Source: Ruditapes philippinarum (taxonomy: Eukaryota). Taken from it: a stretch of 22,163 nucleotides of DNA. The position numbers and the translations under genes were made by a program. The notes under the pieces are model-generated. The model searched no databases and was not told the DNA's origin. It was given only the letters and a program-made list of their open reading frames with translations. The DNA lies in contig NW_026851538.1 in the NCBI RefSeq assembly GCF_026571515.1, positions 1 to 22,163 on the forward strand, read 5' to 3'. How positions within the stretch are numbered: the first letter of the stretch is position 1; each line of letters starts with the position of its first letter. Shown in pieces: positions 1 to 19,105 of this stretch.

Positions 1-340
1 TAAGTTTTGGGGAAAAACAAAAAAAGTTCAAAAGTTTTATAATTTTCAAAAGGGAACTAAAATAATAATAAAATACAAAAAAATTTTTTAATAAATAAAA
101 TTGATCACAAACCTCTGCCCCTTTTTTTCGAAATCCCTTTAAAAAAGGTATTTGCACGGCCATGCATATAAATTTTTTACGTTTACGTCCCTTTTTAAAT
201 TATATGAACAAAAGGATAAGACCCCAAACCAAAAGTTTTTTGGGTTATTTATAGGCGTGTAAATGAAAAAATTGGGGGCCTTTTTTAAACTACAAAACAG
301 TTTTTTATTTTTGTTTTTTGAAAAAATAGAATAATTTTAA
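1..340. other. Homopolymer-stuttered low-complexity block (nearly every base occurs in runs of 2-7). Contains a degraded-looking copy of the motif at 556-592 (cgtaaattctcaattgcatggccttgcatatagtttgacgtgacgtc vs ttgcacggccatgcatataaattttttacgtttacgtcc).
   Basis: Direct reading. Runs such as ggggaaaaacaaaaaaagttcaaaagtttt and gggggccttttttaaa. Partial similarity of 139-199 to 556-592. Confidence 0.4.
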
Positions 341-454
341 AATTTGTGTTTGTTCATTACAAGAAATTTAAAATTTAACTCGTTGAATAAAAATAATAAT
401 ATTGAGCCTCTTTAATAATTAATGCCAGCGGCCCGCAAAATATTATTTTATTCA

Positions 455-850
455 ACAAAGTTCAATAAATTCAGTATTAAAACTTCCACTCATTCAATAT
501 CCTCTATTTATCACATACCCGTGCCTCTTTCACGACTCCGTAAATTCTCAATTGCATGGCCTTGCATATAGTTTGACGTGACGTCATTTGCAATACTTGC
601 AAACATAGCGTTAAGATGCTCTAAATGTTACCGTTACAGTACACTACATAGGCAAGTGAGTAAAAAAGGGATTCTTTTCACCATAAAAAACAGTTATTAT
701 GTTGGTTATGTGATATATAGAATATTATATATATGTAAATTCATTACTTAATTTATTGAACTCGTTGAACAAAATGATATTATACAACTTATTCAATAAA
801 TTCAGTATTGAATCAACACTCATTTAATATCCTCTATTTCTGTCTGCTTT
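455..850. repeat. Two copies of a short dispersed repeat (about 455-530 and 785-850: ttcaataaattcagtatt..actcatt.aatatcctctattt). Each is preceded by a small inverted repeat (cgttgaataaaa / ttttattcaac).
   Basis: Direct comparison of 360-530 with 760-850. Confidence 0.5.
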
Positions 851-1230
851 TAATGCTTCATAATATTTATTATATAAGTTCATGTCACCAAGTTTCTAGC
901 TTTTAAATGACAGAGAAATGTCAGCAGGTGCAATTAGATACAGCCACATATGTATGTCTCAATTTATTAAGTTCATATTCTTTGAATAATGTTCACAAAA
1001 AAAACTTGGGCATGGCTTCGACCGAATAACATTCTATAGGCAATAAAAAGAAAGAAAAAAAACAGTTACATGTATATATATTATTGAGAAAATATGGAAA
1101 GACTATAAAATGAATGTATAAGATATATATCTTATTAATAATAGGTTTGTGAAAAATATTTGCATCTACAAAATACCTTTCAAAAACACTGGATCCAAAG
1201 AAGGATACAAGAACGTGGAAAAAAACAATA

Positions 1231-1378
1231 AATTTGGAGAAAATAAACGTTCATACAGTGCTAAAGTATAAATACCCAAGTACTTTCGGCGTATTATGCC
1301 TTCATGAAGGCATAATACGCCGAAAGTACTTGGGTATTTATACTTTAGCACTGTATGAACGTTTATTTTCTCCAAATT
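1231..1378. repeat. Perfect 148-bp palindrome. Two 74-nt arms, symmetry centre between 1304 and 1305 (ccttcatg|aaggcat).
   Basis: Reverse complement of 1305-1378 equals 1231-1304 with no mismatch that I can see. The 69-aa ORF on the minus strand (1166-1375) is the mirror artefact of this palindrome. Confidence 0.85.
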
Positions 1379-3289
1379 TATCTTATTAATAATATATATA
1401 CATGTAAAACAAAAACTAAAATAAAAAAATAAATGTCAATGTATCTTTAACATTTTGTGTTTGTCAATTTCATAATAAAATGTCATTGAGTACCAGTACA
1501 GGAATAATATCTTCACTCTATGAATAAAATGAATTTGGGTCCACATATGGTTTATTGCTTACAAAATTACACTTTTCTGTCACAAAAACAAATCAATAAA
1601 GTTAATAAGACTTGTCAAAAAAATGACCTTCTTGTAATGTATATCTGGGTAAGATATTTTGATAAGATAAAAAATAATCCTAAAAATTATCAAATGTGCA
1701 TTGAAAGAAAAAAAAGGAGTGTTTTGTAAAATTTATTAAACAATAGCATGCAACGGTGCTAGTCACACTGGTTTGACCTAATATTTGTTTAATATTGTTA
1801 TTTAAAGATCCTGTATGTTGTAATCAGGATGTAACAACACTTAAGTAAAATTTTATATATGTATATAAATTATGCTTCTAAAAGATTCAAAACAGTAAAG
1901 AATATGTTAAATATGTAATGCAAATGTTTATAAGCAATATAACTAATCATTAAAATATATGCATTCAGTTCTGATTGAAAGATTTGGCTTAGACTTTACC
2001 GAAATAAATTTCTAATTACCTCCCTTTATTACTTCGGCAATATATTTACAAATAATGCCTTTTGGAACTTACAATATTGATAAATCTCCATTTGAGTATC
2101 ATATTTATGATATAAAAGCATAAAAAAAATTTAAGTTACAGGATCTTTAATATGTAATACCATGATCTTTAATATCATATACACATATTAAGAAAATTTA
2201 AAATCTGATTTACTTATTTTTGTCTGTACCAAGATACATTGTAGCAAAAACTTTTTTCTTCTTCTTCTATTAGTATAAGTTAATATAATACTCATCTAAT
2301 TTCATGTAAGCACTAAAGCCTGTGGTGTAATTGTATCTAATGAAAACATAAATCTTATCTTCTCTATTTTGGTAAGGTTTTAGCATGGCAATGAATACAG
2401 TAATAGGCCATATGGCGAATATTTCACTTTTTTCTGGTGGAGGAAGGGAAGAAAGGCCTCAGGTGCCCCTCCATGTATCAAATTTCAGGGCATGAACGGG
2501 CCACCCAAGTAAACCACTGTAGAACCATCAACGTTTTTGATATGCTTAGCTGGATAGCTTTTTTCACTAAAAAGATTTTCCAAAGTTGTCTTGCAGGGTT
2601 TGAACCTAGAGTGGTAAAGGTCATGTGCTTTGAAGTCAACAACCTTAACTGCATGGCAACAGCGTGTTCTATATTCAATTTCAGAATATGGGAACACAGC
2701 TTTAAAATTTAGCTTCAACTACATATGTATGTCTTGGCTTTGGACTTACATCTATCAGTGAAACAATGGGATGGGTTTAAAACTATGCTAGCTGGCATCA
2801 GCATTTTTCGTACTGCATACATATGTCTCTAGCTGGTGATTAAAATCATTTATTTTCCAGAAATATACTGATTAATATCAGTTATTATTACTCATATAAA
2901 AGTTACTCAGTCCAAGTATGTATGGTATTTTTGAAATTGTTTGATAAGAAATAAAGATATGCATGTATTAAATAATCATCAATGCTTTTATTCACATCTG
3001 TTGAGAAATAGAGGATTTTCATACAGAAAATACTGTTTTACACTCAGCCGCCCACACTCCACATTCACCTAGAAACTAGTTTCCCTGTGGAAAAAACCTG
3101 GCAATAAATTAACAGGTTAAAGTGAAACAAGAGCCATGTCAACATGGCCATCCCCTGCCGAATGTGTTTGCTCGTTGGAAGAATGTATATGTAGTAGAGC
3201 AGAATAACTCCATTTTAAGAGGTCTTTTGGTAATGAAAACTGATGGCTATAGTGATTACAGATTTGAAACCTATGTGAATACTAATGGC

Positions 3290-4067
3290 TGAAAATAACA
3301 AAGGGCAATAACTGAAAAATAATGCAGAGTAGGTTATCATTCTTGTGTGCTGCATTCCTCCTCAGTAAAATCTATCCACCTATGAAGTTTCAAGTTGATA
3401 CCTCAAATACTTTTTGAGAAAAAAATTGAATTGAAAAATTAAGTATGAAAAATAACAAAGGGCAATAACTCAAAAATAATACAGGGTAGAGTTATCATTC
3501 TTAAGCACTGCACTCCTCCTCAATGGGATCCATCCACCTTTGAAGTTTCAAGTTGATACCTCAAATACTTTTTGAGATAAGCTCTGGACAAAATAGCATG
3601 AAAAAAAACAAAGGGCAATAACTCAAAAATTGTATAGGAAAGAGTTATCATTCTTGCGCACAACATACCTCCTCAATAAGATCTATCCACCTATGACATT
3701 TCATGTTGATATCTCAAACACTTTTTGAGTTATGCTCCACTCAGGTGAAAAATTAGGTATGAAAAATAACAAAGGGCAATAACTCAAAAATTATGAAAGG
3801 TAGAGTTATCATTCTTGTGCACTGCACACCTCCTTAGTGAGATCTATGCACCTATGAAGTTTCATGTTAATATCTCATAGGCTTTTGGAGTTATGCTCTG
3901 GACAAAAATCAATTTTGAAAAATAACAAAGGGCAATAACTCAAAAATCATGCAAGATAGAGTTATCATTCTTGTGCACTGCACTCCTCCTCAATGAGGTC
4001 TATCCACCTATGAAGTTTCAAGTTGATAACTCAAATACTTTTAGAGATATGCTCCGGACAAAAATGT
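3290..4067 (+). repeat. Tandem array of about 5 copies of a ~145-166-bp unit. Unit: ..aaaataacaaagggcaataactcaaaaat..agagttatcattcttgtgcactgcactcctcctcaatg..tatccacctatgaagtttcaagttgatacctcaaatactttttgag... BIV160/Cg170-type bivalve satellite family, subfamily 1.
   Basis: The motif acaaagggcaataact recurs at about 3298, 3464, 3608, 3769 and 3925. The similarity to the bivalve satellite is from memory only, not from a search. Confidence 0.85.
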
Positions 4068-4112
4068 CGGATGGAAGGACGGACGGACGGAAGGTCGGAC
4101 GGACGGACGCAG
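4068..4112 (+). repeat. (GGAC)n tetranucleotide microsatellite (ggatggaaggacggacggacggaaggtcggacggacggacgc), immediately 3' of the array.
   Basis: Direct reading. Confidence 0.8.
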
Positions 4113-4128
4113 ACTATTTCTATATCTT

Positions 4129-4148
4129 CCGCCGAAAATTTTCGGCGG
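4129..4148. other. 20-bp perfect palindrome ccgccgaaaattttcggcgg (GC-rich hairpin), 17 bp after the microsatellite. Candidate Helitron/Helentron-type 3' terminal hairpin.
   Basis: Direct reading. The array, then microsatellite, then hairpin layout matches what is described for pearl/Helentron non-autonomous elements of bivalves. Confidence 0.75.
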
Positions 4149-5014
4149 GGGATAATAAAATCTTGAAATACCGTATGATGATAATTTACTAAAAAGAAAT
4201 CTCCAGATCAAGGAAGAGGTATAGGTAAACTGAACATTTTTTACCAGTAAAATAAATTTCTAAGGTCACAAATTCCTTTTTACAAACAAAATTTTTCTGT
4301 CTTTCTTTCTTTCCAAAGATCATGCCCTCGCAAAAGTAGGGTAAATTGTTTTCTCTTTAGAGAAATGTGTAATGCTTTTTTTCATAAGACCCAACAAAAT
4401 GATAAACACATTTAAACTTTCATCTTTGTTTTTTTCTCGTTTTACGATTTTGTGGTGACGTCTCCGAGGAGGCCCCGACCACAACTTGACTGCCTTGTAT
4501 TTCCTCTTGTGACACGCCCTCGGCATTTTTAAGTTTTCCTTGTGCTTCAACATAAAACATGACATCACGTAGCTGCTCCCTCAATTCCTGAATCTCCTAT
4601 AAATAAACATGAAATTTCTGGTTTTATTATAATTGGATTGACAAGAGTTTTTCAATTGGTATCTCTCTGTGACATTGACCTTTGACCTAATAGCCTACTA
4701 ATTAAGTCCAATCCATGGGCCTTGGGCAATGTCCCTACCAAGTTTCAAATACTTATAACAGTATGCCTCCAGATTCAAACTTCTATTAGTGAAATTTTAA
4801 ACAAGAACTGTCGGAGGACAGTACCGCTCGACTATTTGAACAGTTGTCACAAGGTTGTTTCATTGAGTATAACTAGAACTATCACTAAATGTGATTAATA
4901 CCCCACAAGACTTGCTTCGGAAATGAGGATGTTACTAGTAACAGAATACCTTGTAAAATAATTAAAATATAGAGTTTATGGTTGTGGGCAATTAAAGATA
5001 GTTGTGGTTCTTAT

Positions 5015-6957
5015 ATGTTGCATTTCCTTTCAATGTGGGTTGGCCATTGATGAAGTTTAATTGAATTACTCTGTAATAAGTCCAGAAAGACAAAGAAAAG
5101 GAACAAAGGGCAATAACTCTATAAGTCTGTATTTTGTCAAATGGAGTTATTGTTCTTGTGCACTGCACTTCCTCTTAATATCCTTGACAACTGTATGAAG
5201 TTGTATTGAATTCCAAACAGTAGTTTTCAAGTTATGCTCTGGACAAAGAAAAGTAACAAAGGGCAATAACTCTGTAATTAGTCAAGATAGAGTTATGGTT
5301 CTTGTGCACTGCACTTTCTCTTCAATGTGCTTGACCATTGTTTGAAGTTATATTATTTCCAACCATTAGTCTTCAAGTATGGTCCAGACAAAAAAAGGCA
5401 ATGGAAAAGTAACAAAGGGCAATAACTCTGTAATTACTTTTAGATAGAGTTATGGTATTTTGTGCACTGCACTTCCCCTTATTGTGTTTGACAATTGTAT
5501 GAAGTTGTTTTGAATTCCAACTAGTTGTTTTCAAGTTTATGCCTCGGACAAGGAAAAGTAACAAAGGGCAATAACTCTGTATTAGTCAAGATAGAGTTAT
5601 TGGTTCTTATGCACTTGCACTTCCTCTCAATGTGCTTGACCATTGTTATGTAGTTATATTGACATTCCAACCATTAGTCTTCAAGTTATGGTCCGGACAA
5701 AAAAGGAATAGGGAAAGTAACAAAGGGCAATAACTCTGTAATTACTTTAGATAGAAATTATGGTTCTTGTGCACTGCACTTCCCCTTTTGTTGTTTGACA
5801 ATTGTGCGAAGTTTGTTTTGAAAATTCCTAACAGTAGTTTTCAAGTTATGCACCGGACGGAAAAAGTAACAAAGGGGGCAATTACTCTGTAATTAGTCAA
5901 GATAGAGTTATGGTTCTTGTGCACTGCACTTCCTCTCAATGTGCTTGACCATTGTATGTAGTTATATTGAATTCAAACCATTAGTCTTCAAGTTATGGTC
6001 CGGACAAAAAAGGCAATGGAAAGTCAAAAACTCTGTTTAATAACTTTAGATAAAGAGTTATGGTTCTTATGCACCTGCACTTCCCCTTATTGTGTTTGAC
6101 CAATTGTAATGAAGTTGTTTTTTGAATTCCAACCAGTTAGTTTTCAAGTTTATGACCCGGACAAGGAAAAAGTAACAAAAGGCAATAACTCTTGTAATTA
6201 GTCAAGATAGAGTTATGGTTCTTGTGCACTGCAACTTCCTATCTATGTGCTTGACCATTGTATGTAGTTATATTGAATTCAAACTATTAGTCTTCAAGTT
6301 ATGGTCCGGACAAAAAAAAGCAATTGGAAAAGCAACAAAAGAGCAATAACTCTGTAAATTTACTTTAGATAGAGTTATGGTATTTGTGCACTGCACTTCC
6401 CCTTATTGTGTTTGGGCAATTGTATGAAGTTGTTTTGTATTCCAACCAGTAGTTTTCAAAGTTATGCCCCGGACAAAGGTGGAAAAGTTAACAAAGGGCA
6501 ATAACTCTGTAATTAGTCAAGATAGAGTTTTATGGTTCTTGTGCACTGCACTTTCCTCTCAATGTGCTTGACCATTGTATGTAGTTATATTGAATTCCAA
6601 CCATTAGTCTTTCAAGTTATGGTCCGGACAAAACAAAAGCAATGGAAAAGCAACAAAAGGGCAATAACTTGTAATTACTTTAGATAGAGATATTTGGTTC
6701 TTGTGCACTCCACTTCCCTTATTGTGTTTGACAATTTGTATGAAACGTTTTGAATTCCAACCAGTTGTTTTCAAGTTATGCCCCGGACAAGGAAAAGTAA
6801 CAAAAGGGCAATAACTCTGTAATTAGTCAAGATAGAGTTATGGTTCTTATGCACTGCACTTCCTCTCAATGTGCTTGACCATTGGTATGTAGTTATATTT
6901 GAATTCCAACCATTAGTCTTCAAAGTTATGCTTCCCGGACAAGGAAAATGCAAACGG
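5015..6957 (+). repeat. Tandem array of about 12 monomers of ~155 bp, organised as a higher-order repeat of two alternating variants. Type A: ..attagtcaagatagagttatggttcttgtgcactgcacttcctctcaatgtgcttgaccattgtatgtagttatattgaattccaaccattagtcttcaagttatggtccggac. Type B: ..attactttagatagagttatggt.tttgtgcactgcacttccccttattgtgtttgacaattgtatgaagttgttttgaattccaaccagtagttttcaagttatgccccggac. Same satellite family as 3290-4067, but a distinct subfamily.
   Basis: acaaagggcaataact-like anchors at about 5102, 5257, 5411, 5563, 5717, 5868, 6030, 6175, 6335, 6495, 6650 and 6805. A/B alternation read by eye. Confidence 0.85.
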
Positions 6958-6963
6958 ACGTCT

Positions 6964-7003
6964 GGACCCGACCCCGACCGACCAAACCGACCGACCGACC
7001 ACC
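6964..7003 (+). repeat. (CCGA)n / (GACC)n-type tetranucleotide microsatellite ending the second array.
   Basis: gacccgaccccgaccgaccaaaccgaccgaccgaccaccg. Confidence 0.75.
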
Positions 7004-7015
7004 GGGTGACTCCTA

Positions 7016-7048
7016 TATACCCCCCCAAACTTCGTTTTTGGGGGTATA
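7016..7048. other. Imperfect GC-rich hairpin tataccccccaaac..ttcg..gtttttgggggtata, just 3' of the microsatellite. Second candidate Helentron-type terminal hairpin.
   Basis: Direct reading. The arms differ by one C/G and one A. Confidence 0.65.
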
Positions 7049-7149
7049 ATAATGCTTACCTATATGAATACAATAAAAATTATTTTTAAAGGTTCAAAGG
7101 CTTGTTATTAAGATGCTTTATCGAGTAGATCACTGCTTTATTATTATGA

Positions 7150-7905
7150 ATGCATAAAAAATTGTCCCAAAAAAGGCACAAAATTTTCAGTAGTTTATGG
7201 AAAATACCAGCTTACAAGCAAAAACCTTTACCAAGAATTTCTAAGCCGCAAAAAAGAGGCATAATTATGAAAAAAAATAAGGGTTATGGGACTTGTGCCA
7301 ATCATGTTAAATAATCACTGAGAAACAAGTGTGTAAAATTCCAATCCATTCCCTTTCAGTATTTATGGAGATACCAGCTTACTCGCATAAACTTAACCAA
7401 GAAATTTTCTAAGTCGAAAAAGGGGCATACTTATGCAAAAAAGCAAATCAGAGTTATGAAACTTGTGTCAATCATGTTAGATAATCACAGAGAACAAGTG
7501 TGTGAAGTTTCAATCCATTCCCTTCAGCTAGTTATGGAGATACAACCTTACACGCAAAAAACTTAACCAAGAATTTCTAAGTCGAAAAAAGGGGCATAAT
7601 TATGCAAAAAAAAGCAATTCAAAGTTATGGGACTTGCGCATATCATGTTAGATAATCACAGAGAACAAGTTTGGTGAAGATTCAATCTATTTCCTTCAGT
7701 AGTTATGGAAATACCACCATACACCGCATAAACTTAACAAAGAATTTCTAAGTCGAAAAAGGGGCATAATTATGCAAAATAGCAAAATCAGAGTTATGGG
7801 GACTTGTGCCAATCATGTTAGATAATCACAGAAAACAAGTGTGTGAAGTTTCAAATCCATTCCCTTCAGTAGGTAAAAAGAATACCAGCTTACACGCTTA
7901 CATTT
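7150..7905 (+). repeat. Tandem repeat, about 4.3 copies of a ~160-180-bp unit (..cagtagttatggaaataccagcttacacgcataaacttaaccaagaatttctaagtcgaaaaaggggcataattatgcaaaa..agttatgggacttgtgccaatcatgttagataatcacagagaacaagtgtgtgaagtttcaatccattcccttcag).
   Basis: Unit starts at about 7188, 7366, 7525, 7698 and 7868. Confidence 0.75.
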
Positions 7906-7953
7906 TTTTTCTCAAGTTTTTGCTTTTCTTGAAATATTTTGGCTCATCTGGAG

Positions 7954-7967
7954 GCTGCATATGCAGC
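7954..7967. other. 14-bp perfect palindrome gctgcatatgcagc, about 50 bp after the end of the 7150-7905 array.
   Basis: Direct reading. Confidence 0.6.
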
Positions 7968-8179
7968 TTTAAGTTTTCCTTCTTCAAGTAATTGAGCAAA
8001 CATGAATTTTACACTAAGTTTCGCTGTGACCTTTACCTAATGATCATTAAATCAATAGAGGTCATCTCACTGGATAGACCAATCTCCCAGAGTGTAAACC
8101 TAGATGTTATAAAGTTATTCAGCAGAAATCAATGGGTTGCTGACAGATCAACAGATGTTATTTATATTATGTACTGATA

Positions 8180-9180
8180 GACAGATAAGAACAAAAAACC
8201 ATTCAAGAGCCAATTTGCTTGACTAGAATTTATGGAAAGAGAAGGGGGGGCTAATTCCTTAAAAACTGCTTGCAGAAATTACCTGCCCTTGATAAATAAA
8301 CAACTTAACCCCTTTCCCTCATGAGTTATATTGGTCGAAACAAGAGGGCCATGAAATGCCCTGAGGTCGCTCAACCTGTTTATAGGCCCAAGACGAAGAC
8401 GGTTGAATCCACTAGGTCACCCTTGAGAATATTTCAGGGGAGGCTTATAAAAATGGCCTTTTTCATTGAAAAGCCCCCTGGGTTACAAGTTAAAACTGAT
8501 TAATGAAAACTATTGAAAAAATTTGCCCTTAAATACTAATCAAAACTTGGGCACACCATGTTGAACTGGACCATTGCCTTTGTAAACGACTGCTTCAGTT
8601 TAAATTTCCGTTTACCAAAGCAACGAGGGGACGTCCTCAAAATACCTAAATTCCCATATTTTGCCTTCGGATTTTTTTCCATCAAGTGCTGAACTTCTAA
8701 GGGGTTTGAGATAGAGTCAAAGGCTTTTCAGCCCTTGGTTACACATTACCCTTTTTGATCGATCTGGGATCATTTTCAACCTCTCACAAGTACAAAATTT
8801 CTTTTTGGGCGATGGGAAAGGGGATTGCCCCCCCCCTTCAAACCCCCCAAACAGAAGGGGCACCACATCCCCCCTTCCTGGCAACCCCCTGATGTATCTT
8901 TTTTGGATGGGGGAACCGCTCCGGAAAAAATTGCTTCACTTTTCTTAAGCAACATATTCTCCAACGAAAACATATAATTTGGGGCCCCCCAAATAGGACA
9001 TTTTCTCACTATTTGAGGCCTAAAAGGGGGGGGGGTCGAAAGTGTGTTTGTTTTCGCGTATATTATAGGTAAAGGGTTAAGTGAAATAGTGATCTTGATT
9101 TTGTTTGTTTTTATTGTTTTTTTTTTGTTTTTGTTTTTTTCAATAAAATTAGAAAAAAATAACAAGACCTGTCAAAAGGA
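8180..9180. other. Homopolymer-stuttered, G/C-run-rich block (gggggggg, ccccccccc, gggggggggg). Part of it is a noisy copy of clean sequence nearby: 8224-8290 vs 9241-9300, and both relate to the ggggcataattatgcaaaa motif of the 7150-7905 repeat.
   Basis: Direct reading. gaaggggggggctaattccttaaaaactgcttgcagaaattacctgccc vs aaaaggggaccataattttgcaaaactgcttggcagacccttacctagcc. Confidence 0.4.
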
Positions 9181-10020
9181 CAACAGGTTCCTCGTTTTTT
9201 TTTCAGTGCTGGGATAGTGTAATTTAAAATTCACAATATAAAAAGGGGACCATAATTTTGCAAAACTGCTTGGCAGACCCTTACCTAGCCTTAATAGTGA
9301 ACTTGTTTTCAAGTTTTGAACATTAATTGTTCTTTTTATATAGATAAAGGCAAAACACTCTAAATAAAAAAACCGGAGATGGTTAACAAAATATTGCTTT
9401 CCAGGATTATCTTCCCTTTAGAAATGGCCATTTCAAAATTTTACCAGGTGAAAAAGAAGTAGAAGGCAAGAAATGAATGAAGAAGACTGTTTTTTATTTT
9501 TGCGACTTACTTATCTTTTTTGGAAGTTGTAAAATCTTTTGGAATTCTGGACTCCCAATGGTAGTAACTCGTTTCTGCCAACACTTTTTGATTGTCAAGT
9601 AACACTTATTCATCTCTTTCCTCTTTCTTGCAGATCGTGTAGTGCTTTTTTCAAGACGTGTCTGTAGCTAAAAAATTTAAATAAAGTTAATAGAAACATG
9701 ATTTTCCCTGTTAGTTTCAGTCCCATTTATATATTTAGGAAAATACGTTGGGAGGACTGAAACAAGGTCGGATAAGACAAGGGAGTCGTTGAAAATCAGG
9801 GGGTGGCTAAGGCAGTCTTGACTGTAACTTGTAAATTTTTTCTTAATCAGCTAATAATTCACCCTTAACAGATAAACGAATAATTAGCTTTGCTTGATAG
9901 TAACACCAAGATCCTTGATAACAAAGAACTTTAAACAAATGGGTCATGATGGCCCTGAAATCACTCACATGAATTTTAAAAACTCTTCCATGACAAGGAA
10001 CAAGTAAAATTGTAAACTAT

Positions 10021-11000
10021 AAAACAAAAGCAGATATAAAATCTAAATCTTAAACTGATATCACAAAGTTCATATTTGGTATCACAGAAATAGTGCATGT
10101 GTAAAAACAATACTGGTTGCTATTGCAAAGGGAAAACAACAGTTGCCACAGATGTGTACAATAGGGAAAAATCAATGACCCCATGGGGCAAATTTTCACC
10201 AAAGAGCTTTTATTTAAACAACTTGGTAAACTCTTATGAGACAATGTATCATGCTTAATATCTAAGCTCTATCTATTTGGTTTCTTTAAAAGAAGATTAT
10301 TTAAAGTTTTTACTATATACATATAAGGAAATCAATGACAGCCCAGGACAGGGCCAATATTGACCCAAGTCTTTTTATTTGAACAATTTACTTGGTAAAT
10401 ATTCACTAGAAAATGTTTCATTTTTAATATCAAAGCTCTAGCTATTTGGGTTTTCTCAAAACAAGATTTTATTTTTTTTTTCTATGTGCATATAACGAAA
10501 ATCAACTACCCACTTAGGCAGGGCCAATTTTGACCCCAGAAAATTTATTTGAACAAACTTGGTAAACACTCACTAGAAAATGTTATATCCTTAATATCTA
10601 AGCTCTAGCTCTTTTTTAAAAGATTTTTTTTTTACTATATGATGATATACAAATTAGGAGAATAAATTACCCCCCCCCCCCCCCCTCCCCGGGGCAGTGC
10701 CAATTTTTTACCCTAGAGCTTTTATTAAATAAACTTGGTACAATAAATTTAGTAAATGTCTCAATTAGTGATTGCTCTAGCACCTAGCTCCTTTGGTTTA
10801 AAAAAATAAAATAAATAAATTTTACTATATACATATAAGGAAAATCAATGACTCCCAGGGCAGGGCCAATTTTGACCCAAGGCCTTTTATTTGAACAAAC
10901 TTGGTAGACACTCACTTGAAAAAGTTTCATGCCTAATATCTAAGCTCTAGCTATTTGTGTATTTTTTCTGAAGAAGATTTTTTTTAGTTTTTCTTATATA
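10021..11000 (+). repeat. A ~130-bp header (aagcagatataaaatctaaatcttaaactgat..gtgcatgtgtaaaaaca.tactgg..cagatgtgtacaat) followed by about 5 tandem copies of a ~170-185-bp unit (tatatacatataaggaaaatcaatgac..cagggccaattttgacccaag..ttatttgaacaaacttggtagacactcac.agaaaa.gtttcatgcttaatatctaagctctagctatttg). One copy carries a poly-C run (10668-10690).
   Basis: Copies at about 10160, 10330, 10500, 10650 and 10840. Confidence 0.7.
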
Positions 11001-11043: not shown

Positions 11044-11072
11044 CGAAATCCAGTCGGATGGATGGACAGAAG
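11044..11072 (+). repeat. Short (GGAT/GGAC)n-like microsatellite relic: cagtcggatggatggacagaaggtaaacc.
   Basis: Direct reading. Resembles the microsatellite that ends the 3290-4067 array. Confidence 0.45.
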
Positions 11073-11899
11073 GTAAACCTAAAGTCCCCCTGGTTAATCT
11101 AGTAGGGGACCAATAAAAGCTAGTTGGGAGCATAATAAAAGGAAATAATTGCCTCAAGCTAATCATTAAGTGTAGTACTATACAATTGTTTTTCTGTTAA
11201 GGATAATATCATCTTGTGTAACATGATACTTCCTGGTTTAAAAATTAAATAAATCTATCGCTACAAGTTTACACAGGTTAAATACATAGCAGTGGATAGA
11301 CGGGAAGTGACTTGTCAGATAAGAAACTAAAGACGGCAATATCTTTAATATTCTAGACAGCAGTATAAATACCTGGTGAGTCAATTTACTCAATATCTAT
11401 GTTTAAAAATTAAATAAAACTTATCAAGTATTTATATTACTTTAAATTGATTTAAGTTTGCCCTACAGTTTAAATAACCTTGAGAGAATTTTTTTATACC
11501 CCACCCACACTTCAAACTAACTTTAAATGGTTAATATTTTATTTTGATTGGTTAATGTGACAACATGATCTGCATATTCTTAAAAAAGGAATAACCTGAA
11601 CACGTCAGTCACTAAACTATTACAAAAAGGTCATCGTAATCCTGTATTTCTCACCTGAGATATATTGCTAGGAAAGGTCACATTTTTTATTTTCCAAGAA
11701 TGACTTCCTATTTCATCTGCCTTTAATATTATTTACCCAAGCTGCATTATTCTTCAGATATTTGTAGATGTCTGCTATTAAATGCTTAATGACAAATATC
11801 TAAGCTATTGGCATTGTAGTTTTACAAAACAAGAGGGCCCTGTATCACTCACCTGAGAAACAGGTCAAAGTGGAGCCCGTTTTCACCGCAGAAGCACAA

Positions 11900-12440
11900 T
11901 TTGAAAACAAGGGACAGCTTAACCTTAACAATTTTGACCCTAAAGCAATTATTTAAACAAAGATGGCAGACATCCACTAGAAGATGTTTCATGCCAAATA
12001 TCTAATCTATAGTGCTTTTGGATTGTCATAAGAAGATTTCTTAAGTTTTTACTATATACATATAAGGAAAATCAGTGACCCCCTGGGGTGGACCAATTTT
12101 GACCCTAGGAATTTTATTTCAACAAACATGGTAGACATACACTAGAACATGTTTCATGACATTGTCCTCATGTGAGCTTAAAAAAAAGCAGATATTAAAT
12201 CTAAATCTTAAACTGATCACAAAGTTCAAATTTGTATGTGAAATAGTGCATGTGTAAAAACATTACTGGGAGAACAACAGTTCCAACAGATGTGTACAAT
12301 GACAACTTGGGGCGAGGCCAATTTTCACCCCAGGGCTTTTATTTGAACAAACATGGTAGACACCCATTAGAAGATGTTTCATGCTTAACATCTAAGCTCT
12401 AGCTATTTAAGTTTTTTAAAAGAATTTTTTTAAGTGTTTA
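11900..12440 (+). repeat. Second block of the 10021-11000 family. Units at about 11900-12170, then a duplicate of the header (12181-12290 ~ 10021-10150, roughly 80-85% identity by eye), then another unit (12290-12440).
   Basis: Direct alignment by eye of 10021-10330 against 12181-12440. Confidence 0.65.
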
Positions 12441-12461
12441 CTATTTTAAGTTTTTTCTTTT

Positions 12462-12477
12462 GGTTGCCATGGCAACC
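12462..12477. other. 16-bp perfect palindrome ggttgccatggcaacc, partly reiterated (catggcaaccatggcaacc), at the end of the 11900-12440 block.
   Basis: Direct reading. Confidence 0.6.
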
Positions 12478-12499
12478 ATGGCAACCAGAGTTCTGCAAG

Positions 12500-12800
12500 G
12501 AATTTAATTCTTTGAACAACTTTGGTAGATTTTGACCCCATGGGCATGATTTACTTCACTTTGTGTAATTCTACATACCAAATATCTAAGCTCTGGGCAT
12601 TGTAATTTCAGGGAAGAAGATTTTTTAAGACATTTTGACTGTACAAATCTATGTAAACTAAGTTAACCTTATTGCTTGGCCATTTTTTACTCCAGGGGTA
12701 TGACTTATACAACTAGTGTAGAGATCCATTGAGCCATTGCTTCCTGCCAAATATCTGAGCTCCTGGTAATCATATTGAAGACTCACAAAAAAGACATAAA
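12500..12800 (+). repeat. Two copies of a ~150-bp unit (..ttttgaccccatgggcatgatttacttcactttgtgtaattctacataccaaatatctaagctctgggcattgtaatttcag..). Related to the flanking families through the ttttgacccca / aatatctaagctct cores.
   Basis: Copies at about 12520-12660 and 12670-12790. Confidence 0.5.
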
Positions 12801-12869
12801 TGTATTTTCCTTTACAAGTCTACATAAAGTAAGTGACTCCAGGGAAGGAGGCAAGTTTGATCACAAATG

Positions 12870-14262
12870 AGTCAAAATGTGATCACCAGAGTGTTCACAA
12901 GGTTTTTCCATATTTGGGCGGCGTGACCTAGTTTTTGACCCCAGGTGACCCATATTTGTCCTTCACCTAGAAATTATCAAAACAAACTTTCAGAGCAATT
13001 TCAAGTACTTTTTATTAAAACAGTAGTCACTAGAGTGTTAACAAGATTTTATATTTTTAGCTCCTGTGACCTAGTTTTTTCATCCAAGATTACCCATGTT
13101 CGAACTCATTCGAGCAATAAAGCTAGACAAGCGTCCTAAAAATCCTGAAAAAGTTTAATGATGATTGAGGCAAAAATGTGACGTTAGAGTGTTAACGAAC
13201 AAATGTGGACGGACGACAGTCGACGGACGACTGACATTTAACAATCCTAAAACCTCACCCTGAGCAAACTGTAAAATCTAAGCTTTGAGCATTATAGGTT
13301 GAAACAAGATGAAATAAATGTGTTTTCCTAGGATATAAGTCTACATAAACAAAAGGGCCCTGATTATGAAGGCTCAATCCCATATTATTTGGGCTGACCT
13401 GTGTGACCTAGTTTTTGACCCCAGATGATCCATATATACAATGTACTTGACCTCAAAATTTCATTTAAACAACCTTTCTGAACAATTTTCCTGGATATTT
13501 GGATCAAAAAACAAAAGCTTCTATAGTGTGTTTACAAGGTTTTTCCATAATATTGCTGTGTTGCCTTGGTTTTTAACACTAGTTGACCAATATTTGAGAT
13601 TGACCTAGAAATCACCAATACAACCTGTCTGACTGATTCCTAGATATTTGAATCATAACAGTAGTATCTAGAGTGTAAACAAGGTTTTTCCAGATATTGG
13701 TCTGTGTGACCTACTTTCTGACAAAAAGTGACCCATATTTAAACTTGACCTAGAAATTATCATAACAACCTTTCTGACCAATTTCTAGGATATCTGGACT
13801 GGAACAGTAGCCCCTAGAGTGTTTACAAGGTTTTCCAATACTTATGCTGTGTGACCTAGTTTTTTGACCCAAGGTTGAACCCATGTTCTTACTTTGCCTA
13901 GAAATCACCATAACAACTTTATTGACCAATTTCCAGGATATTTGGTTCAAAACAATAGCCTCTAGACTAGCAAGGTTTTTTCATATCTGGGCAGTGTGAC
14001 CTAGTTTTTGACTATCGATGACCTATATTCCAATTGAGATGGAAATGATATAAACAACCTTTCTGACCAATTTCAAGGATATTTGGATCAACATTGTAGC
14101 CTCTAGAGTGTAAACAAGGTTTTTCCATATTTGGACAGTGTAACCTAGTTTTTGACCCAAGGTAACCCATATTCAAACTTGACCTTGAAATTATCATACC
14201 ATCCTTCCTGACCATTTTCCATGACATTCTATGATAGCCCCTAGACAAGTGTGTACAAAGTT
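12870..14262 (+). repeat. Tandem array of about 9 copies of a ~148-bp unit (..agagtgtttacaaggtttttccatatttgg.c.gtgtgacctagtttttgaccccaggtgacccatatttg..cttgacctagaaattatcataacaacctttctgaccaatttc.aggatatttggatcaaaacagtagcc.ctagagtg..). Interrupted at 13140-13380.
   Basis: gtgacctagttttt anchors at about 12924, 13067, 13401, 13560, 13706, 13852, 14000 and 14143. The small minus-strand ORFs 13750-13950 and 14012-14248 are periodic repeat artefacts. Confidence 0.8.
13205..13245 (+). repeat. Degenerate (GGAC)-type microsatellite relic inside the array: gaacaaatgtggacggacgacagtcgacggacgactgac. Resembles 4050-4110.
   Basis: Direct comparison with ggacaaaaatgtcggatggaaggacggacgg at 4055-4085. Confidence 0.45.
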
Positions 14263-14346
14263 TTATGTTGATATCTCTTATTGTTTCAGAGTAATGTCCC
14301 GGACAAAGTTCAAAGTGTAAAAAGGGAACCTTTGTTGCAATATACC

Positions 14347-14548
14347 TGTTAAGTTAAATCCAACACCTTATTAATGCTAACGCCAACACTAAATAAATAT
14401 ATTTCACTTTAATGTATGGTCATAATCAACAAAGTAACTTCATTATTCCAATCCTAACGTTGCTAAGCCAGTTGATGACGTCGTGACGTTATGACGTCAT
14501 AATGACGTTATATAAAGTTTACTAAACAAAAATAAGATGAAATTAACA
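14347..14548 (-). repeat. 3' LTR of the copia element (202 bp). Contains a TGACGT(C/T)(A/G) cluster (tgatgacgtcgtgacgttatgacgtcataatgacgtta; four CRE-like half or full sites, one exact TGACGTCA) and a palindromic TATA element (tatataaag).
   Basis: Direct reading. Confidence 0.75.
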
Positions 14549-14556
14549 TTAATTAT

Positions 14557-14580
14557 ACTTTCTTTCTTTTCTTCTTTTCT
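14557..14580 (-). promoter_or_regulatory. Polypurine tract (minus strand reads agaaaagaagaaaagaaagaaagt), 8 nt upstream of the 3' LTR.
   Basis: Plus strand 14557-14580 is actttctttcttttcttcttttct. Confidence 0.6.
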
Positions 14581-14664
14581 GTGATGTTTTGAGTCATTAA
14601 AAAAACTGATGTTTTGAGTCATTAAAAAAAATGTAAGATATAAAAATGTTAAAATTCTACAAGT

Positions 14665-14973
14665 CTATATAAAATCTTTTGAAATTGTTCCTTCTTGTAT
14701 TACACACAGCAGATCATATCCGGATGCCCCACGCTTAGTCATACAGTCAGCCAAATGATGTTTCCCTGGGCACCATCGAATTTCTTTGACTTCATTTCTG
14801 GACAAGGATTCGCTGATTGCAGCTATATCTACACGAAGACGCTTGTCATCTACTAGCTTGGTTGAATTCACAGCTTCTATTACACTTCTATTGTCCACAT
14901 AAGCAATTATTGGTATTGTGTGATTGGGTATCCTTAGAGCGTTTTCGATCATTTTGTCTGTAATAATATCCAC
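14665..14973 (-). CDS. Copia RNase H C-terminal segment (102 aa; YVDNRSVIEAV .. VDIAAISE .. HHLADCMTK). Overlaps the RT ORF in a different frame, which is the second frameshift.
   Basis: ORF track, plus the copia-typical C-terminal AD..TK motif. Confidence 0.6.
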   Translation of the reverse strand: MDIITDKMIENALRIPNHTIPIIAYVDNRSVIEAVNSTKLVDDKRLRVDIAAISESLSRNEVKEIRWCPGKHHLADCMTKRGASGYDLLCVIQEGTISKDFI

Positions 14974-15964
14974 ATTCTAATCCTTCTTGTAAACTGAGAG
15001 CTTCAGCAGCAATTGTTGATCGTACTACCCTTTTTATTTTGTTGGTATGCCAGAAAAGTGGACAACATTTTCCAGAAGTGTCCATTAACCATACTATATA
15101 AGCCGCAGTGCTCCCTGTTCCAGAATTTATGTTGCACAAAGATGCATCTGTGAAGACTGCAATCTTCCAATCACCTACAAAGTTGCTCAATTGTGGGAAT
15201 CTTATAAAAGACTTGAAGTTTTTCAATCTGTTCACTGCTTTGATCGCCTGAGATAGATCACTCATTGTAGCTTCCTTGAGTTTAGTGCTCAAGTCTATCA
15301 ACTCAAATGCCATATCGGGCCTTGTTCCTTGCACTACCCAGTTAATCTGACCAATGATTTTCCTGAAAAGAGTCTGTTCTTCAGATGTTAATACTTCCTG
15401 TTTATTCTGGACTCTCTTTGTGTCAATCTGTCTGCTCTCTATGTTTTCCACATATCTAGATTGGTCCAGAATAATTGCATTGCTCTCCTGAGAAATCCTG
15501 AAACCAATATAATCAAACTGTCCTTTTTCAATTTTTCCTGCAACAAATCGTTTTCGTAATTTAGTCAGGACCTTCTCCAAACATTCATCACCAGCATGAA
15601 GAAAATCATCAACATGACAACAAATAATGCCGTTAAGCTTGTCTCCAGTGTGCAGAAAGAACATTGCTGGATCCATCTCTGATATATGACACCCTAATCT
15701 AATTAACTCGTCTTTCACACTTAGATAGAATTGTCTTGCTCCGTCTTTGAGGCCATAAAGTCCATGTTTAAGTTTCCAAATTATTCCAGCGATAGTGTCA
15801 CTTTCCTTTGGAGGTTTAATGTAGACTTCCCTCCGAATTTCTTTTCCCTGTAGAAACGCCGACTTTATATCTGTGGTTTTTACAATCCAATTATTTACAG
15901 CTGCAAGTGCAAGAAATGTTCTAAGTGTTCCTTTTCCCACTGTTGGACTGTCACTTTGCATCAC
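14888..15964 (-). CDS. Copia reverse transcriptase and the N-terminal part of RNase H (358 aa). Motifs: DIKSAFLQG, YGLKDGARQFY, CCHVDDFLHAGDE (YXDD box), QGTRPDMAF, IAVFTDAS. Different frame from both neighbouring pol ORFs.
   Basis: Motifs in the ORF track. 15964 and 18272 are in different frames. Confidence 0.8.
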   Translation of the reverse strand: MMQSDSPTVGKGTLRTFLALAAVNNWIVKTTDIKSAFLQGKEIRREVYIKPPKESDTIAGIIWKLKHGLYGLKDGARQFYLSVKDELIRLGCHISEMDPAMFFLHTGDKLNGIICCHVDDFLHAGDECLEKVLTKLRKRFVAGKIEKGQFDYIGFRISQESNAIILDQSRYVENIESRQIDTKRVQNKQEVLTSEEQTLFRKIIGQINWVVQGTRPDMAFELIDLSTKLKEATMSDLSQAIKAVNRLKNFKSFIRFPQLSNFVGDWKIAVFTDASLCNINSGTGSTAAYIVWLMDTSGKCCPLFWHTNKIKRVVRSTIAAEALSLQEGLECGYYYRQNDRKRSKDTQSHNTNNCLCGQ

Positions 15965-15974
15965 ATATTCTTCC

Positions 15975-18272
15975 TCAAATCCGCGTACAACAAGTCGAGC
16001 CTTTGTTTGACCATTTTTTGTGAGTTATCACCCATCTTGTTGATAAAGTTACCTGACCATAATCTTGAACTTCTTCATATGTGCCAAAGTGTTGCAGCTT
16101 CTGAAGTTCACAAATTTTAGCAGATGTGACTTCATCATCAGCACAAGTCTGTTTCATTACCAAATTAACCTCATTTGTTAACATTTTCCATTGAACTGCC
16201 TCCAGATTAATACTCTTCTTCTCTTTGCTGATATCTTCCTCTATATTATACCAAAACTTGTTTCTGCCTGTTGCTTTTCCAGCCCTTCCTAGTATTTTTG
16301 CTTGTATCCACTGATCTGTATCCTGTGCTCTATATTGTATGTTGTCATTTGCCTTCAATGTCCTTTCTTCAGGTGGAATATTTTGAATGTTGTTTTCCAA
16401 ACTAGCTGATGATCTATCTGACATGTTTGACTGCAAGTTCTTAAATGGATCTGAGGATGGTATGTCCTCGTTTATGGTCTGCATACTTGTCTGATCTGAG
16501 GTTTGCTGGTCAGCTAATGTGCCCTCATTAGCATTGCTTCTTTCTTCTTCCAGACTTTCATAACTGTTTGCCTCACGATTATCAGAACTCATATAATCAT
16601 TTACCCTCTGCAGCCTATTAGGCGATACTCGCACAAACACTGCTCCATGTCTAACAAACACCACTTTTCCATCTTGAAATACCACCTTTCCAGGTCCAAG
16701 CCAACGCTCTTTTCCCTCTCGCTTGTAGAAAACATTATCACCATGTTCAAAAACTTGTTCAGAAGCCCTTACTTTATTACGTAGAGCTCTCCTTATTCTT
16801 TCGTCAGCTTCCGACTGAATGAATGCTCTCCGAGCAGCATGCAAAACATTCAAATGCCTTGCAAATTCCTCACTGCTGGTGGTCCCTTGTAATGCAGGCA
16901 AGTTTTCACTCATAATATTGGGAATATTGGGGTTCTGCCCAAAAACAAGCTGATGACTGCTAAAACCATTCCACATCTGTAAAGAATTTCTTGCCATATT
17001 CGCCCATGATAGTAACGTCTGCAAGTCTACTTTCCCACAATCTGCCTGTAACTTAATCAGCATCATATCTGTTATAGCATGCACTCTCTCACATAAACCA
17101 TTCTGAAATGGACTTTGACCAGATGTTGTGCATAATTTAATGTTCAGTATTGACGTGATCTCTCTTACTTCATCTGAATTGAATTCACCACCGTTGTCAG
17201 TCATTAATGAGCCCATCATGCCAAACTTACCTACCCATTCCCTCATCAGTGCATCTATAATCTTTTCTGGCTTCTTTCTGTTGATAAACGTTGACACCGT
17301 ATATCTGGACCACATGTCTATAATGTGTAAAATCCAGCAGCCGTTCCATTGCTTAAGATCCATCGCAACTTTTTCATTGAACTTGGAAGCCATAGGCATA
17401 CCTACGACAGGCCTTGATGGAGTTTTTGCATACATCTTGCAAAGTTCACAATTGTTAGTAATGAGATCAAGAGTTTCCTCAAATTCTTCTCTCCAGATAA
17501 CTGCATCTTTCATAAGTGCTGACAGCCGTTTCTTAGGTGGGTGTGCAAATTGCCTGTGCAATTTCACAAATGTTTTGTATCTCTCATTTTTGCTTAAATC
17601 ATCAAAGTTTACAGCACAAACACTTTCTACAGGTACCTCTACCGTCTTATCTATCGGAATACAGTAATGACCTGATGTTGTCAAATTTAAAGCCACCTCT
17701 TTTCCCATAATGCTAGCTGTGTCGTTTTCTAGATCCATTTTTATAGCAGCCCTCTTCATTGCTGTCCGAGACAATAACAGGGGAATGTCCGACTCCACAA
17801 CATCTGTTTTGATGAAAACATCTTTGCCAGCAATCACTGCAGGTATACAGTATTCTCCTTTTGATGTTAGGCATGTCCCACCACCAAACTTGAAAACTCT
17901 CTGACTATCTAACTGTGTTACTCTCTGTTTATCTCCTACATCTAATGACTGTATATAGTTATTTATCCAGTTTTTACCACACACTGTACTGCTGCAAGCA
18001 CTATCAAGAACAGCACAATTTCGAGCATCTACACCCAAACGCTGAATCTCATCCTTATTGTAACCTGTAAACAATACTGCATGTTCCTCTTCAACAGCAT
18101 TCACTTTCTTCATGTTTTCCCAGCTATGGGGGCATGCCTGTAGCAGATGCCTATATGAACCACAAGACTTGCAGGTAAGCGTTCTTCCATCTGGACCAAT
18201 AGGATTGATGTTCTTTGCAAGACCTTTTCTGTGACTGTCTTGAGCAATGTCTGAACGCTGAAACTCTTTCAT
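15975..18272 (-). CDS. Copia gag(C-term)-protease-integrase ORF (765 aa). CCHC zinc knuckle CKSCGSYRHLLQAC. Aspartic protease VLDSACSST. Integrase HHCC (HRQFAH..CELC) and DDE core (HIIDMWSRY .. TDNGGEF .. CERVH). An acidic/Ser-rich linker, then the start of RT (TLSTRWVITHKK). Frameshifted relative to the downstream RT ORF.
   Basis: Motifs read from the supplied translation. Domain order PR before IN before RT is diagnostic of Ty1/copia. Confidence 0.8.
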   Translation of the reverse strand: MKEFQRSDIAQDSHRKGLAKNINPIGPDGRTLTCKSCGSYRHLLQACPHSWENMKKVNAVEEEHAVLFTGYNKDEIQRLGVDARNCAVLDSACSSTVCGKNWINNYIQSLDVGDKQRVTQLDSQRVFKFGGGTCLTSKGEYCIPAVIAGKDVFIKTDVVESDIPLLLSRTAMKRAAIKMDLENDTASIMGKEVALNLTTSGHYCIPIDKTVEVPVESVCAVNFDDLSKNERYKTFVKLHRQFAHPPKKRLSALMKDAVIWREEFEETLDLITNNCELCKMYAKTPSRPVVGMPMASKFNEKVAMDLKQWNGCWILHIIDMWSRYTVSTFINRKKPEKIIDALMREWVGKFGMMGSLMTDNGGEFNSDEVREITSILNIKLCTTSGQSPFQNGLCERVHAITDMMLIKLQADCGKVDLQTLLSWANMARNSLQMWNGFSSHQLVFGQNPNIPNIMSENLPALQGTTSSEEFARHLNVLHAARRAFIQSEADERIRRALRNKVRASEQVFEHGDNVFYKREGKERWLGPGKVVFQDGKVVFVRHGAVFVRVSPNRLQRVNDYMSSDNREANSYESLEEERSNANEGTLADQQTSDQTSMQTINEDIPSSDPFKNLQSNMSDRSSASLENNIQNIPPEERTLKANDNIQYRAQDTDQWIQAKILGRAGKATGRNKFWYNIEEDISKEKKSINLEAVQWKMLTNEVNLVMKQTCADDEVTSAKICELQKLQHFGTYEEVQDYGQVTLSTRWVITHKKWSNKGSTCCTRI

Positions 18273-18283
18273 GCCTGATTTTC

Positions 18284-18523
18284 CTAATTTCCCCTTTTCC
18301 AGTTTCCTCTGCTGCCTCCATTATAATTCCCTTGTTGAATTCTTAATTTGGAGTAACCTGCAGCAAGTAGCGCCTCTTCATTTGCTGCAAGAAAAGCAGG
18401 TTCTAGTTTGATACTTGAGCTGCCACTTGACATATTCATGTCATTACCCTTAAACTTTTTCAGTGACTTCTTAGCCTGTTCGTACAATGTAGCTTTTTCA
18501 TCATAATTCACCACCAGTCCCAA
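18284..18523 (-). CDS. Short gag-like ORF fragment (79 aa) upstream of the main gag-pol ORF. The N-terminal part of gag is presumably lost in the stuttered block 18530-19105.
   Basis: ORF track; its position relative to the zinc-knuckle ORF. No recognisable motif of its own. Confidence 0.35.
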   Translation of the reverse strand: MGLVVNYDEKATLYEQAKKSLKKFKGNDMNMSSGSSSIKLEPAFLAANEEALLAAGYSKLRIQQGNYNGGSRGNWKRGN

Positions 18524-18529
18524 AGACTA

Positions 18530-19105
18530 GCACCGCCCTCCCCTTGGAAATGTTCCGCCCTCAGAAAGTAGTTTTAAAAGCCAAAAAATTCAGCAGGCAA
18601 ATGTCCCTACTTTTCCCTTTTAATTTCCCTATCTTTTAATCAAAACGTACCATATTTATTTAAAAATTTGGGTTGGAGAAACTTAATAAAATCCTTTCCA
18701 AAAAAACCTAATTTTTTTAAATGTCCCGTTAAAAACCAAACCCCTTTTTGGAAAATGTGGTCCCCGAAATAAAGAAAGTCCCAAACCAAACATCATTTTT
18801 AAATCCCCGTTTGTATTGGTTTTAAAAAATTTCAGTATTTTAGATTCATCATCCCCTTGGGGAATGATAAAGCCCAAAATTAAAACCCCCTTTGTCTTTT
18901 TTAAAATTCTGGAATTTTCCCCCCATGCCAAAAAATTTCCCGTTTTTAAAAACCTTAAAACTTCCCTTCCCCTTTTTTTAGTTTTGGAGGATTTATCCCC
19001 GGTGCCCCTATTAAACCCCTTTAAATGTTAAAAAATACCCAAAATGTTAGAAAATAACAAATGTCTAACTTTTGTAAAAAAACCTGGAATAGTTTCCCCT
19101 CCCCT
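18530..19105. other. Homopolymer-stuttered block inside the copia element, between the 5' LTR and the recognisable gag (e.g. tccccgaaataaagaaagtcccaaaccaaac, ccccttttttt, ttttttt). It should contain the PBS and the gag N-terminus but is unreadable as such.
   Basis: Direct reading. Same doubled-base texture as 1-340 and 8180-9180. Confidence 0.4.

Follow-up and report, generated by a model that had tools for sequence, protein, structure and literature searches.

Three run-inflated blocks in a Ruditapes philippinarum contig, one of them across the 5′ end of a copia retrotransposon, are very probably corrupted base calls

Analysis of a 22,163-nt stretch of Ruditapes philippinarum DNA (contig NW_026851538.1, positions 1 to 22,163, referred to here as the window) showed three blocks in which homopolymer runs are abnormally long, and one of these blocks lies across the 5′ end of a Ty1/copia retrotransposon on the minus strand. 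Judged from the sequence, the three blocks are very probably a technical artefact, in which low-quality base calls were incorporated in the assembly consensus. Their likely source would be individual reads, or ends of reads, of low quality, or a consensus or polishing step that failed. The true sequence would persist in the blocks in a blurred form, and run lengths would rise with little change in total length because short runs are swallowed by their neighbors, some bases are dropped, and others are repeated. For the block at the copia element (block 3), this reading is about as well supported as it could be without reads.

The texture of the window was measured as run length in sliding 200-nt windows, and runs of at least 3 nt were tested per 300-nt window, split into G/C and A/T runs, against the rest of the window. 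The median was 1.45 bases per run (standard deviation 0.17 across the 200-nt windows), and values above 1.75 were found only at positions 1 to 400, 8700 to 9400, and 18500 to 19100. Mean run lengths were 1.8 to 2.3 in the first and third of these places and 1.6 to 1.94 across 8200 to 9450, with a shoulder of 1.57 to 1.67 bases per run at 8200 to 8700. Both classes of run were in excess. Block 1 had 8 G/C runs of at least 3 nt compared to 2.5 expected, and 47 A/T runs compared to 17.1. The corresponding numbers were 36 compared to 13.1 (P = 6e-8) and 93 compared to 60.1 for block 2, and 27 compared to 4.6 (P = 1e-13) and 68 compared to 27.6 (P = 5e-13) for block 3. None of the other 300-nt windows was enriched in G/C runs. 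The one region flagged besides the blocks, at 4201 to 4500, was enriched in A/T but not G/C runs, which is consistent with ordinary A/T-rich low complexity. Splitting run-length profiles into G/C and A/T thus separates such artefacts from natural A/T-rich simplicity.

A first-pass annotation of the window had named run inflation in three places, and the enrichment of both G/C and A/T runs showed that it is present there, beyond chance, and confined to them. Its limits for the blocks were adjusted to 1 to ∼400, ∼8200 to ∼9550 (with fuzzy edges), and 18512 to 19173. Its description of nearly every base as doubled was overstated, as 69 to 80% of the bases in the blocks are in runs of at least 2 nt compared to a background of ∼50%. 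The blocks are as follows.

Positions 1 to 400, no strand assigned: block 1, run-inflated, low-fidelity sequence with a mean run of 1.8 to 2.1, its left end cut by the start of the window.
Positions 8200 to 9550, no strand assigned: block 2, weaker run inflation with fuzzy edges, strongest at 8700 to 9150, with a mean run of 1.57 to 1.94.
Positions 18512 to 19173, minus strand: block 3, the corrupted 5′ end of the copia element, comprising the inner 5′ long terminal repeat (LTR), the primer-binding site (PBS) and leader, and gag codons ∼1 to 156.

The copia element was recognized by the Pfam domains rve, in the open reading frame (ORF) at 15975 to 18272 (minus strand), and RVT_2, in the downstream ORF at 14888 to 15964 (minus strand). 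Its best protein matches were bivalve polyproteins with 57 to 79% identity (72% for Mercenaria mercenaria and up to 79% for unnamed ENA proteins). Like other Ty1/copia elements, it has a pair of direct LTRs with TG...CA termini, a polypurine tract (AGAAAAGAAGAAAAGAAAGAAAG, 9 nt upstream of the 3′ LTR), and gag followed by integrase and then RVT_2. Unlike them, it has an unreadable PBS, a garbled gag N terminus, and three frameshifts in pol, and no target-site duplication was recognized (the called LTR ends, which may be off by a few bases, give flanks of GGTAT and CTTTG). The element is young and probably near-intact. It sits at the edge of a 145-bp tandem array. Its parts are as follows.

Positions 19074 to 19289, minus strand: 5′ LTR, from blastn of the LTR pair and alignments; the outer part (19175 to 19289) is clean and the inner part (19074 to 19174) progressively corrupted.
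Positions 19002 to 19073, minus strand: expected leader and PBS, unreadable, placed from the inner end of the LTR at 19074 and a gag start near 19010 to 19016.
Positions 18512 to 19001, minus strand: garbled gag N terminus, residues 4 to 156 of related polyproteins, contiguous with the clean ORF at 18511.
Positions 14668 to 18511, minus strand: clean C-terminal part of gag followed by pol, in which integrase precedes reverse transcriptase, from Pfam rve and RVT_2 and from tblastn.
Positions 14549 to 14590, minus strand: polypurine tract region directly upstream of the 3′ LTR, reading AGAAAAGAAGAAAAGAAAGAAAG TATAATTAA and then the TG of the LTR on the minus strand.
Positions 14316 to 14548, minus strand: 3′ LTR, clean, used as the standard for what the true 5′ LTR should read; on the strand of the element, it runs from TGTTAATTTC to CTTTTTACA.

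The LTR pair served as an internal control, since an element inserts with two identical LTRs. Across the outer part of the 5′ LTR (19175 to 19289), there was 1 mismatch in 115 nt relative to the 3′ LTR. The next part (19115 to 19174) gave 58 matches, 1 mismatch, 1 extra base, and 19 missing bases, and the part at 19075 to 19114 was scrambled. The inner margin measures 99 nt compared to 122 nt in the clean twin (19% shorter), and ∼30 of the 122 inner bases of the 3′ LTR are missing from the 5′ copy, with others mismatched. By blastn, the pair is 86% identical overall; the corruption lowers the apparent LTR identity to this value and would distort an estimate of the age of the element. A difference of more than 30% across 660 nt beside an LTR difference of 1% is incompatible with the age of the element and is not mutation, because it rises from 1% to more than 30% within 100 nt, persists across the leader and on for 490 nt into gag, and ends there, while 3.8 kb of gag-pol keep long ORFs.

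The same comparison bears on the idea that the blocks are real genomic sequence, either low-complexity DNA formed by replication slippage or the product of a hypermutation process that expands and merges runs. Clam intergenic DNA is A/T rich and full of satellites, and the region at 4201 to 4500 has naturally long A/T runs. However, a young element whose LTRs are 99% identical where clean cannot naturally diverge by more than 30% along an unbroken 660 nt that begins within one LTR and ends within gag and still keep long ORFs in the remaining 3.8 kb. Furthermore, inflation is as strong for G/C runs as for A/T runs, the changes do not belong to one substitution class such as that of APOBEC, repeat-induced point mutation (RIP), or ADAR editing, and the texture is the same in three unrelated sequence contexts. 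We regard this origin as very unlikely. DNA with cryptic simplicity or slippage resembles the blocks in that its homopolymer runs exceed the expectation from composition, but the natural example at 4201 to 4500 affects A/T only, and such DNA does not overwrite recognizable coding sequence and one LTR. A narrower version, in which a sharply localized process such as error- or slippage-prone repair synthesis over patches of 0.4 to 1.3 kb merged and expanded runs with little change in length, would be a genuine sequence change of a most improbable kind; if true, a localized mutational process struck a young copia element in one of its LTRs and at the start of gag. Editing-type hypermutation (APOBEC, RIP, or ADAR) was considered and rejected, as block 3 departs from its LTR twin and from L001, a relative with 74% nucleotide identity, by base loss and neighbor-copying and not by one transition class.

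Both LTRs also carry a cluster of cyclic AMP response element (CRE)-like ACGTCA/TGACGT repeats (GATGACGTCGTGACGTTATGACGTCATAATGACGT), at 19205 to 19250 and 14475 to 14512.

The gag side of block 3 was examined with protein relatives. With the full-length relatives P0001, P0002, and P0019, tblastn followed gag-pol from 14668 to exactly 18511 (residue ∼156) and then ended. The noisy segment was then aligned by a run-aware, frameshift-tolerant protein-to-DNA dynamic programming (DP) procedure in which any base can be dropped, cheaply if it extends a run, with shuffled proteins as the null. When the N-terminal 160 residues were aligned to the noisy segment only, the scores were 311 compared to 181 ± 12 for P0001, 279 compared to 178 ± 8 for P0002, and 288 compared to 168 ± 8 for P0019. 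The closest relative, P0009, scored 314 compared to 162 ± 11 (z = 13.8), and z values for gag in block 3 were about 11 to 14 overall. The opposite (plus) strand of block 3 gave scores at the null level. The traceback placed residues 4 to 156 on 19001 to 18512 at ∼40 to 50% identity. The number of deletions needed per 60 nt was 0 across the clean sequence at 18320 to 18499 and about 4 to 12 inside block 3, and the few further deletions in the clean part cluster at a frameshift near 18293. In total, ∼58 deletions in 490 nt (∼12% of the bases) restored the gag frame. At the DNA level, direct alignment showed block 3 to be collinear throughout with L001. The homologous L001 segment has a mean run of 1.50 compared to 2.09 in block 3, whereas in the adjacent clean part of the gene the values are 1.34 and 1.41, respectively.

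Therefore, block 3 is an in-place corrupted copy of the copia 5′ LTR, leader, and gag N terminus, collinear and correctly positioned. The first-pass annotation had put the third block where the copia PBS and gag N terminus should be, and it lies exactly at the inner 5′ LTR, PBS/leader, and gag N terminus. No tRNA-complementary PBS was readable at 19002 to 19073, a region within the noise. The mean run is 1.5 at 18500, climbs to 3.16 at ∼18920, and is back to 1.4 at 19160. Since the profile rises from both edges to a peak near 18920, the quality in block 3 decays gradually from each side. The reading frame and run lengths also bear on the suggestion that recombination or gene conversion attached to this element the 5′ part of another copia copy, one that is divergent or old, so that the poor similarity of block 3 would reflect evolutionary divergence. 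Recombinants are common among retroelements, and the gag N terminus is the least conserved part of the polyprotein (∼40 to 50% identity in the DP alignments). A divergent functional copy, however, would keep an open frame and normal run lengths, whereas here ∼58 deletions are needed in 490 nt and the mean run is 2.09 compared to 1.50; the LTR decays gradually with no switch at a breakpoint, and blocks 1 and 2 would be left unexplained. We give this suggestion almost no weight. When reads are lacking, sister LTRs combined with run-aware protein-to-DNA alignment thus provide an internal test of corruption.

Some features of the damage were apparent. First, about a quarter of the runs (24 to 27%) are gone: 234 remain compared to 306 in the gag segment, and 182 compared to 249 in block 1. 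Second, runs are merged, as alignments to the LTR twin, to L001, and to a clean twin of block 1 described below showed ATATAT turned into AAAAAA or TTTT and AAATAAA turned into AAAAAA. Third, the net length changes little, by +7% in block 1, +7% in the gag segment (490 nt for 153 codons, where 459 nt would be expected; the homologous L001 segment is 458 nt), and −19% in the LTR margin. Finally, on the plus strand of block 3, C runs are inflated (mean 2.32) and G runs are not (1.32), whereas blocks 1 and 2 are roughly symmetric; a single-strand bias of C over G fits a read-level error. The damage is run merging with some bases lost, others repeated, and length roughly conserved. It is not a simple insertion stutter, because a quarter of the runs vanished and the net length changes only by −19% to +7%. 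For the same reason, collapsing the homopolymers of block 3, which had been proposed as a way to restore the gag ORF, fails: capping runs at 1, 2, or 3 gives no ORF, full collapse leaves 285 nt compared to the 459 or more needed, and tblastn finds weak fragments at best. The gag was recovered only when the alignment was free to choose how far each run shrinks.

These features bear on how the artefact could have arisen. The first-pass annotation had called the texture typical of uncorrected long-read insertion errors or mispolished regions. A technical origin, false frameshifts and low-complexity calls, and no mutational signature all held, whereas the insertion mechanism did not agree with the length, the run counts, or the gradual onset. 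On this explanation, the blocks would be raw, insertion-rich long-read sequence (PacBio continuous long reads [CLR] or similar) left in an unpolished gap fill or a low-coverage repeat span, that is, the truth plus same-base insertions. This would explain why the blocks stand within otherwise clean sequence and why the runs of all bases are expanded, and the ∼12% of bases deleted to restore the gag frame is near the insertion rates of raw CLR; the frameshifts in clean pol lie at A-runs, and long-read clam assemblies exist. However, insertions cannot remove ∼25% of the runs, blocks 1 and 3 have gained only ∼7% in net length, the LTR margin has lost 19% relative to the truth, and neither capping nor collapsing runs restores an ORF. 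Moreover, the onset is gradual over at least 100 nt at both edges, whereas raw reads would be expected to give uniform noise. We consider an origin in raw long reads possible but rather doubtful. Near-conserved length, gradual onset, and run merging would fit read ends at which peaks or flows are no longer resolved (Sanger or flow-based sequencing) better than the insertion-dominated noise of raw PacBio reads, according to the error profiles generally known for these platforms. Assemblies of clams from ∼25× PacBio RSII reads with wtdbg2 and hybrid polishing do exist, making the general setting plausible (PMC9803972), and systematic long-read errors dominated by indels are documented (PMC8574707).

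Block 1 is a degraded, blurred version of a sequence that stands clean 400 nt away, which occupies the following position.

Positions 436 to 782, no strand assigned: clean counterpart of block 1, aligned to 29 to 398.

The alignment of 29 to 398 with 436 to 782 has 62.9% identity over 385 columns and a score of 195 compared to a run-shuffled null of 94 ± 11; under a second scoring scheme, the tile at 202 to 398 matched 593 to 782 with a z of 9.5. The noisy copy has 370 nt in 182 runs compared to 347 nt in 249 runs for the clean twin. At a finer scale, the mean run falls from 2.6 at 260 to 1.4 at 460, with the noise fading smoothly across ∼340 to 460. The match of 139 to 199 with 556 to 592 that was noticed first was borne out as part of this longer alignment. 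Either the sequence at 436 to 782 is a tandem copy lying next to block 1, or the assembly contains a single sequence twice; block 1 may thus also represent a false tandem duplication. A motif at 575 to 590 in the clean partner, GACGTGACGTCA, resembles the CRE-like repeats of the LTRs and underlies the match of 139 to 199 with 556 to 592.

The general description of the blocks as noisy copies of adjacent clean sequence was right for block 1 only, as block 3 is corrupted in place and no clean twin could be identified for block 2. When the three blocks were homopolymer compressed and compared by self-BLAST under lenient scoring, all matches were at noise level. Standard blastn of the blocks against the window gave 251 to 392 with 648 to 774 in block 1 as its only match, with none seen for the other two blocks. 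In tile-wise Smith-Waterman alignments with run-shuffled nulls and two scoring schemes, block 1 alone was significant. For block 2, neither blastn nor the tile searches found a significant clean counterpart inside the window. The claimed match of 8224 to 8290 with 9241 to 9300 was found neither by blastn at an E value of 0.1 or less nor by the tile searches and is not above chance. The core common to these two segments, GGGGCATAATT.TGCAAAA, also occurs in the 170-bp unit at 7186 to 7897, and it is a motif of a local satellite family and no evidence for a noisy duplicate. Block 2 as a noisy copy of the following ∼1 kb was likewise rejected, as only the first ∼90 nt align and the remainder has a z of about 2.4. 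By analogy of texture, we infer that block 2 shares the cause of blocks 1 and 3: the error texture is the same for G/C and A/T in three unrelated contexts, namely, satellite-flanked DNA, intergenic DNA, and a retrotransposon LTR with coding region. A 129-aa ORF at 8776 to 9165 (minus strand), with no Pfam match, lies wholly within block 2 and is probably spurious.

Several points weigh against low-quality base calls as the common cause. Length-conserving, run-merging errors match the usual description of no single current long-read platform. The C-over-G asymmetry does not flip across block 3, unlike what two converging opposite-strand reads with a dye-specific bias would give. Block 2, with no clean counterpart, is assigned by its texture. 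The three frameshifts in pol detected by tblastn, each beside an A-run (frame −2 to −1 at ∼18293, −1 to −2 at ∼16018, and −2 to −3 at ∼14955), could be real mutations or further homopolymer-length errors. Finally, no other copy of the locus was found by an exact-protein look-up of a neighboring TRIM-like ORF or by a search for a 28-mer of the LTR in three DNA collections, and the artefact is deduced from the window's own sequence. These collections, of viral, metagenome, and prokaryotic genomes, did not contain the 28-mer. Neither the locus nor its copia family was recovered as an independent copy, and L001 was the closest relative that could be used.

Comparison with known sources of error gave partial likenesses. 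Untrimmed low-quality read ends, such as the late part of Sanger traces or reads affected by phasing in 454 and Ion Torrent sequencing, show gradual decay over at least 100 nt, merging of neighbors, loss of weak bases, and roughly conserved length, as the blocks do, and block 1 is at the very end of the fragment. Differences from such read ends are the length of block 2 (∼1.35 kb), which is large for a pair of converging tails, the absence of N calls, and the constant direction of the asymmetry in block 3. Unpolished or mispolished consensus from PacBio CLR or Oxford Nanopore Technologies (ONT) reads, or gap filling with raw reads, shares with the blocks local indel-rich stretches in repeats and false frameshifts. 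Its errors are mainly insertions (PacBio) or homopolymer contractions (ONT), whereas here runs are lengthened, a quarter of them are lost, and the net length change is −19% to +7%. Local indel-rich errors in long-read assemblies are documented (PMC8574707 and PMC12007338).

The relevance of the blocks is one of data hygiene and not of biology. They would produce false low-complexity or repeat calls, false frameshifts, and spurious ORFs such as the one at 8776 to 9165, and they would make an essentially intact young copia element look 5′ truncated and gag-less. Masking or resequencing is advisable for the stretches at 1 to 400, ∼8200 to 9550, and 18512 to 19173. As a by-product, the analysis yielded a corrected annotation of the copia element, which is young and probably near-intact.

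The flanks of the blocks are of normal quality: the pol ORF extends over 765 aa, and a TRIM-like ORF of 589 aa is intact at the following position.

Positions 19781 to 21550, plus strand: intact B-box/NHL (TRIM-like) ORF, 589 aa, intronless, ∼600 nt from block 3, with Pfam zf-B_box and NHL.

The predicted TRIM-like protein (B-box/coiled-coil/NHL) matches a large family of Ruditapes philippinarum paralogues (dozens) at 100% coverage and up to 86% identity. Together with the bivalve matches of the copia protein, this places the source of the window among venerid clams or their close relatives. An exact-protein look-up found no match on record for it or for its two closest Ruditapes paralogues. 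The ORF may be an unannotated or presence/absence-variable member of an expanded bivalve family, or it may derive from a sister species.

The window as a whole is A/T-rich animal DNA full of satellite-like tandem arrays with units of 145, 155/156, and 170 bp. Five arrays were seen, at 3292 to 4065, 5121 to 6948, 7186 to 7897, 10209 to 10614, and 13467 to 14214, with units of 156, 155 (higher order 308), 170, 169, and 145 bp, respectively. Several of them have motifs in common (AAAGGGCAATAACTC, GTGCACTGCACTTCC, and ATGCTCCGGACAA), and there are many 1-nt indels between copies. A perfect 154-nt palindrome lies at 1228 to 1381, with 77-nt arms that are 100% complementary, no spacer, and the center CCTTCA|TGAAGG, and the bases flanking it seem to extend the symmetry by a few nucleotides. 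It could be a foldback element, an element like a miniature inverted-repeat transposable element (MITE), or an assembly artefact, for example, an inverted chimeric read. Clam copia and TRIM-like proteins were also found filed under prokaryotic labels, such as “transposase [Candidatus Thiodiazotropha endolucinida]” and, at JGI, “tetrahydromethanopterin S-methyltransferase subunit G,” which indicates host-DNA contamination or misannotation in metagenome-derived records.

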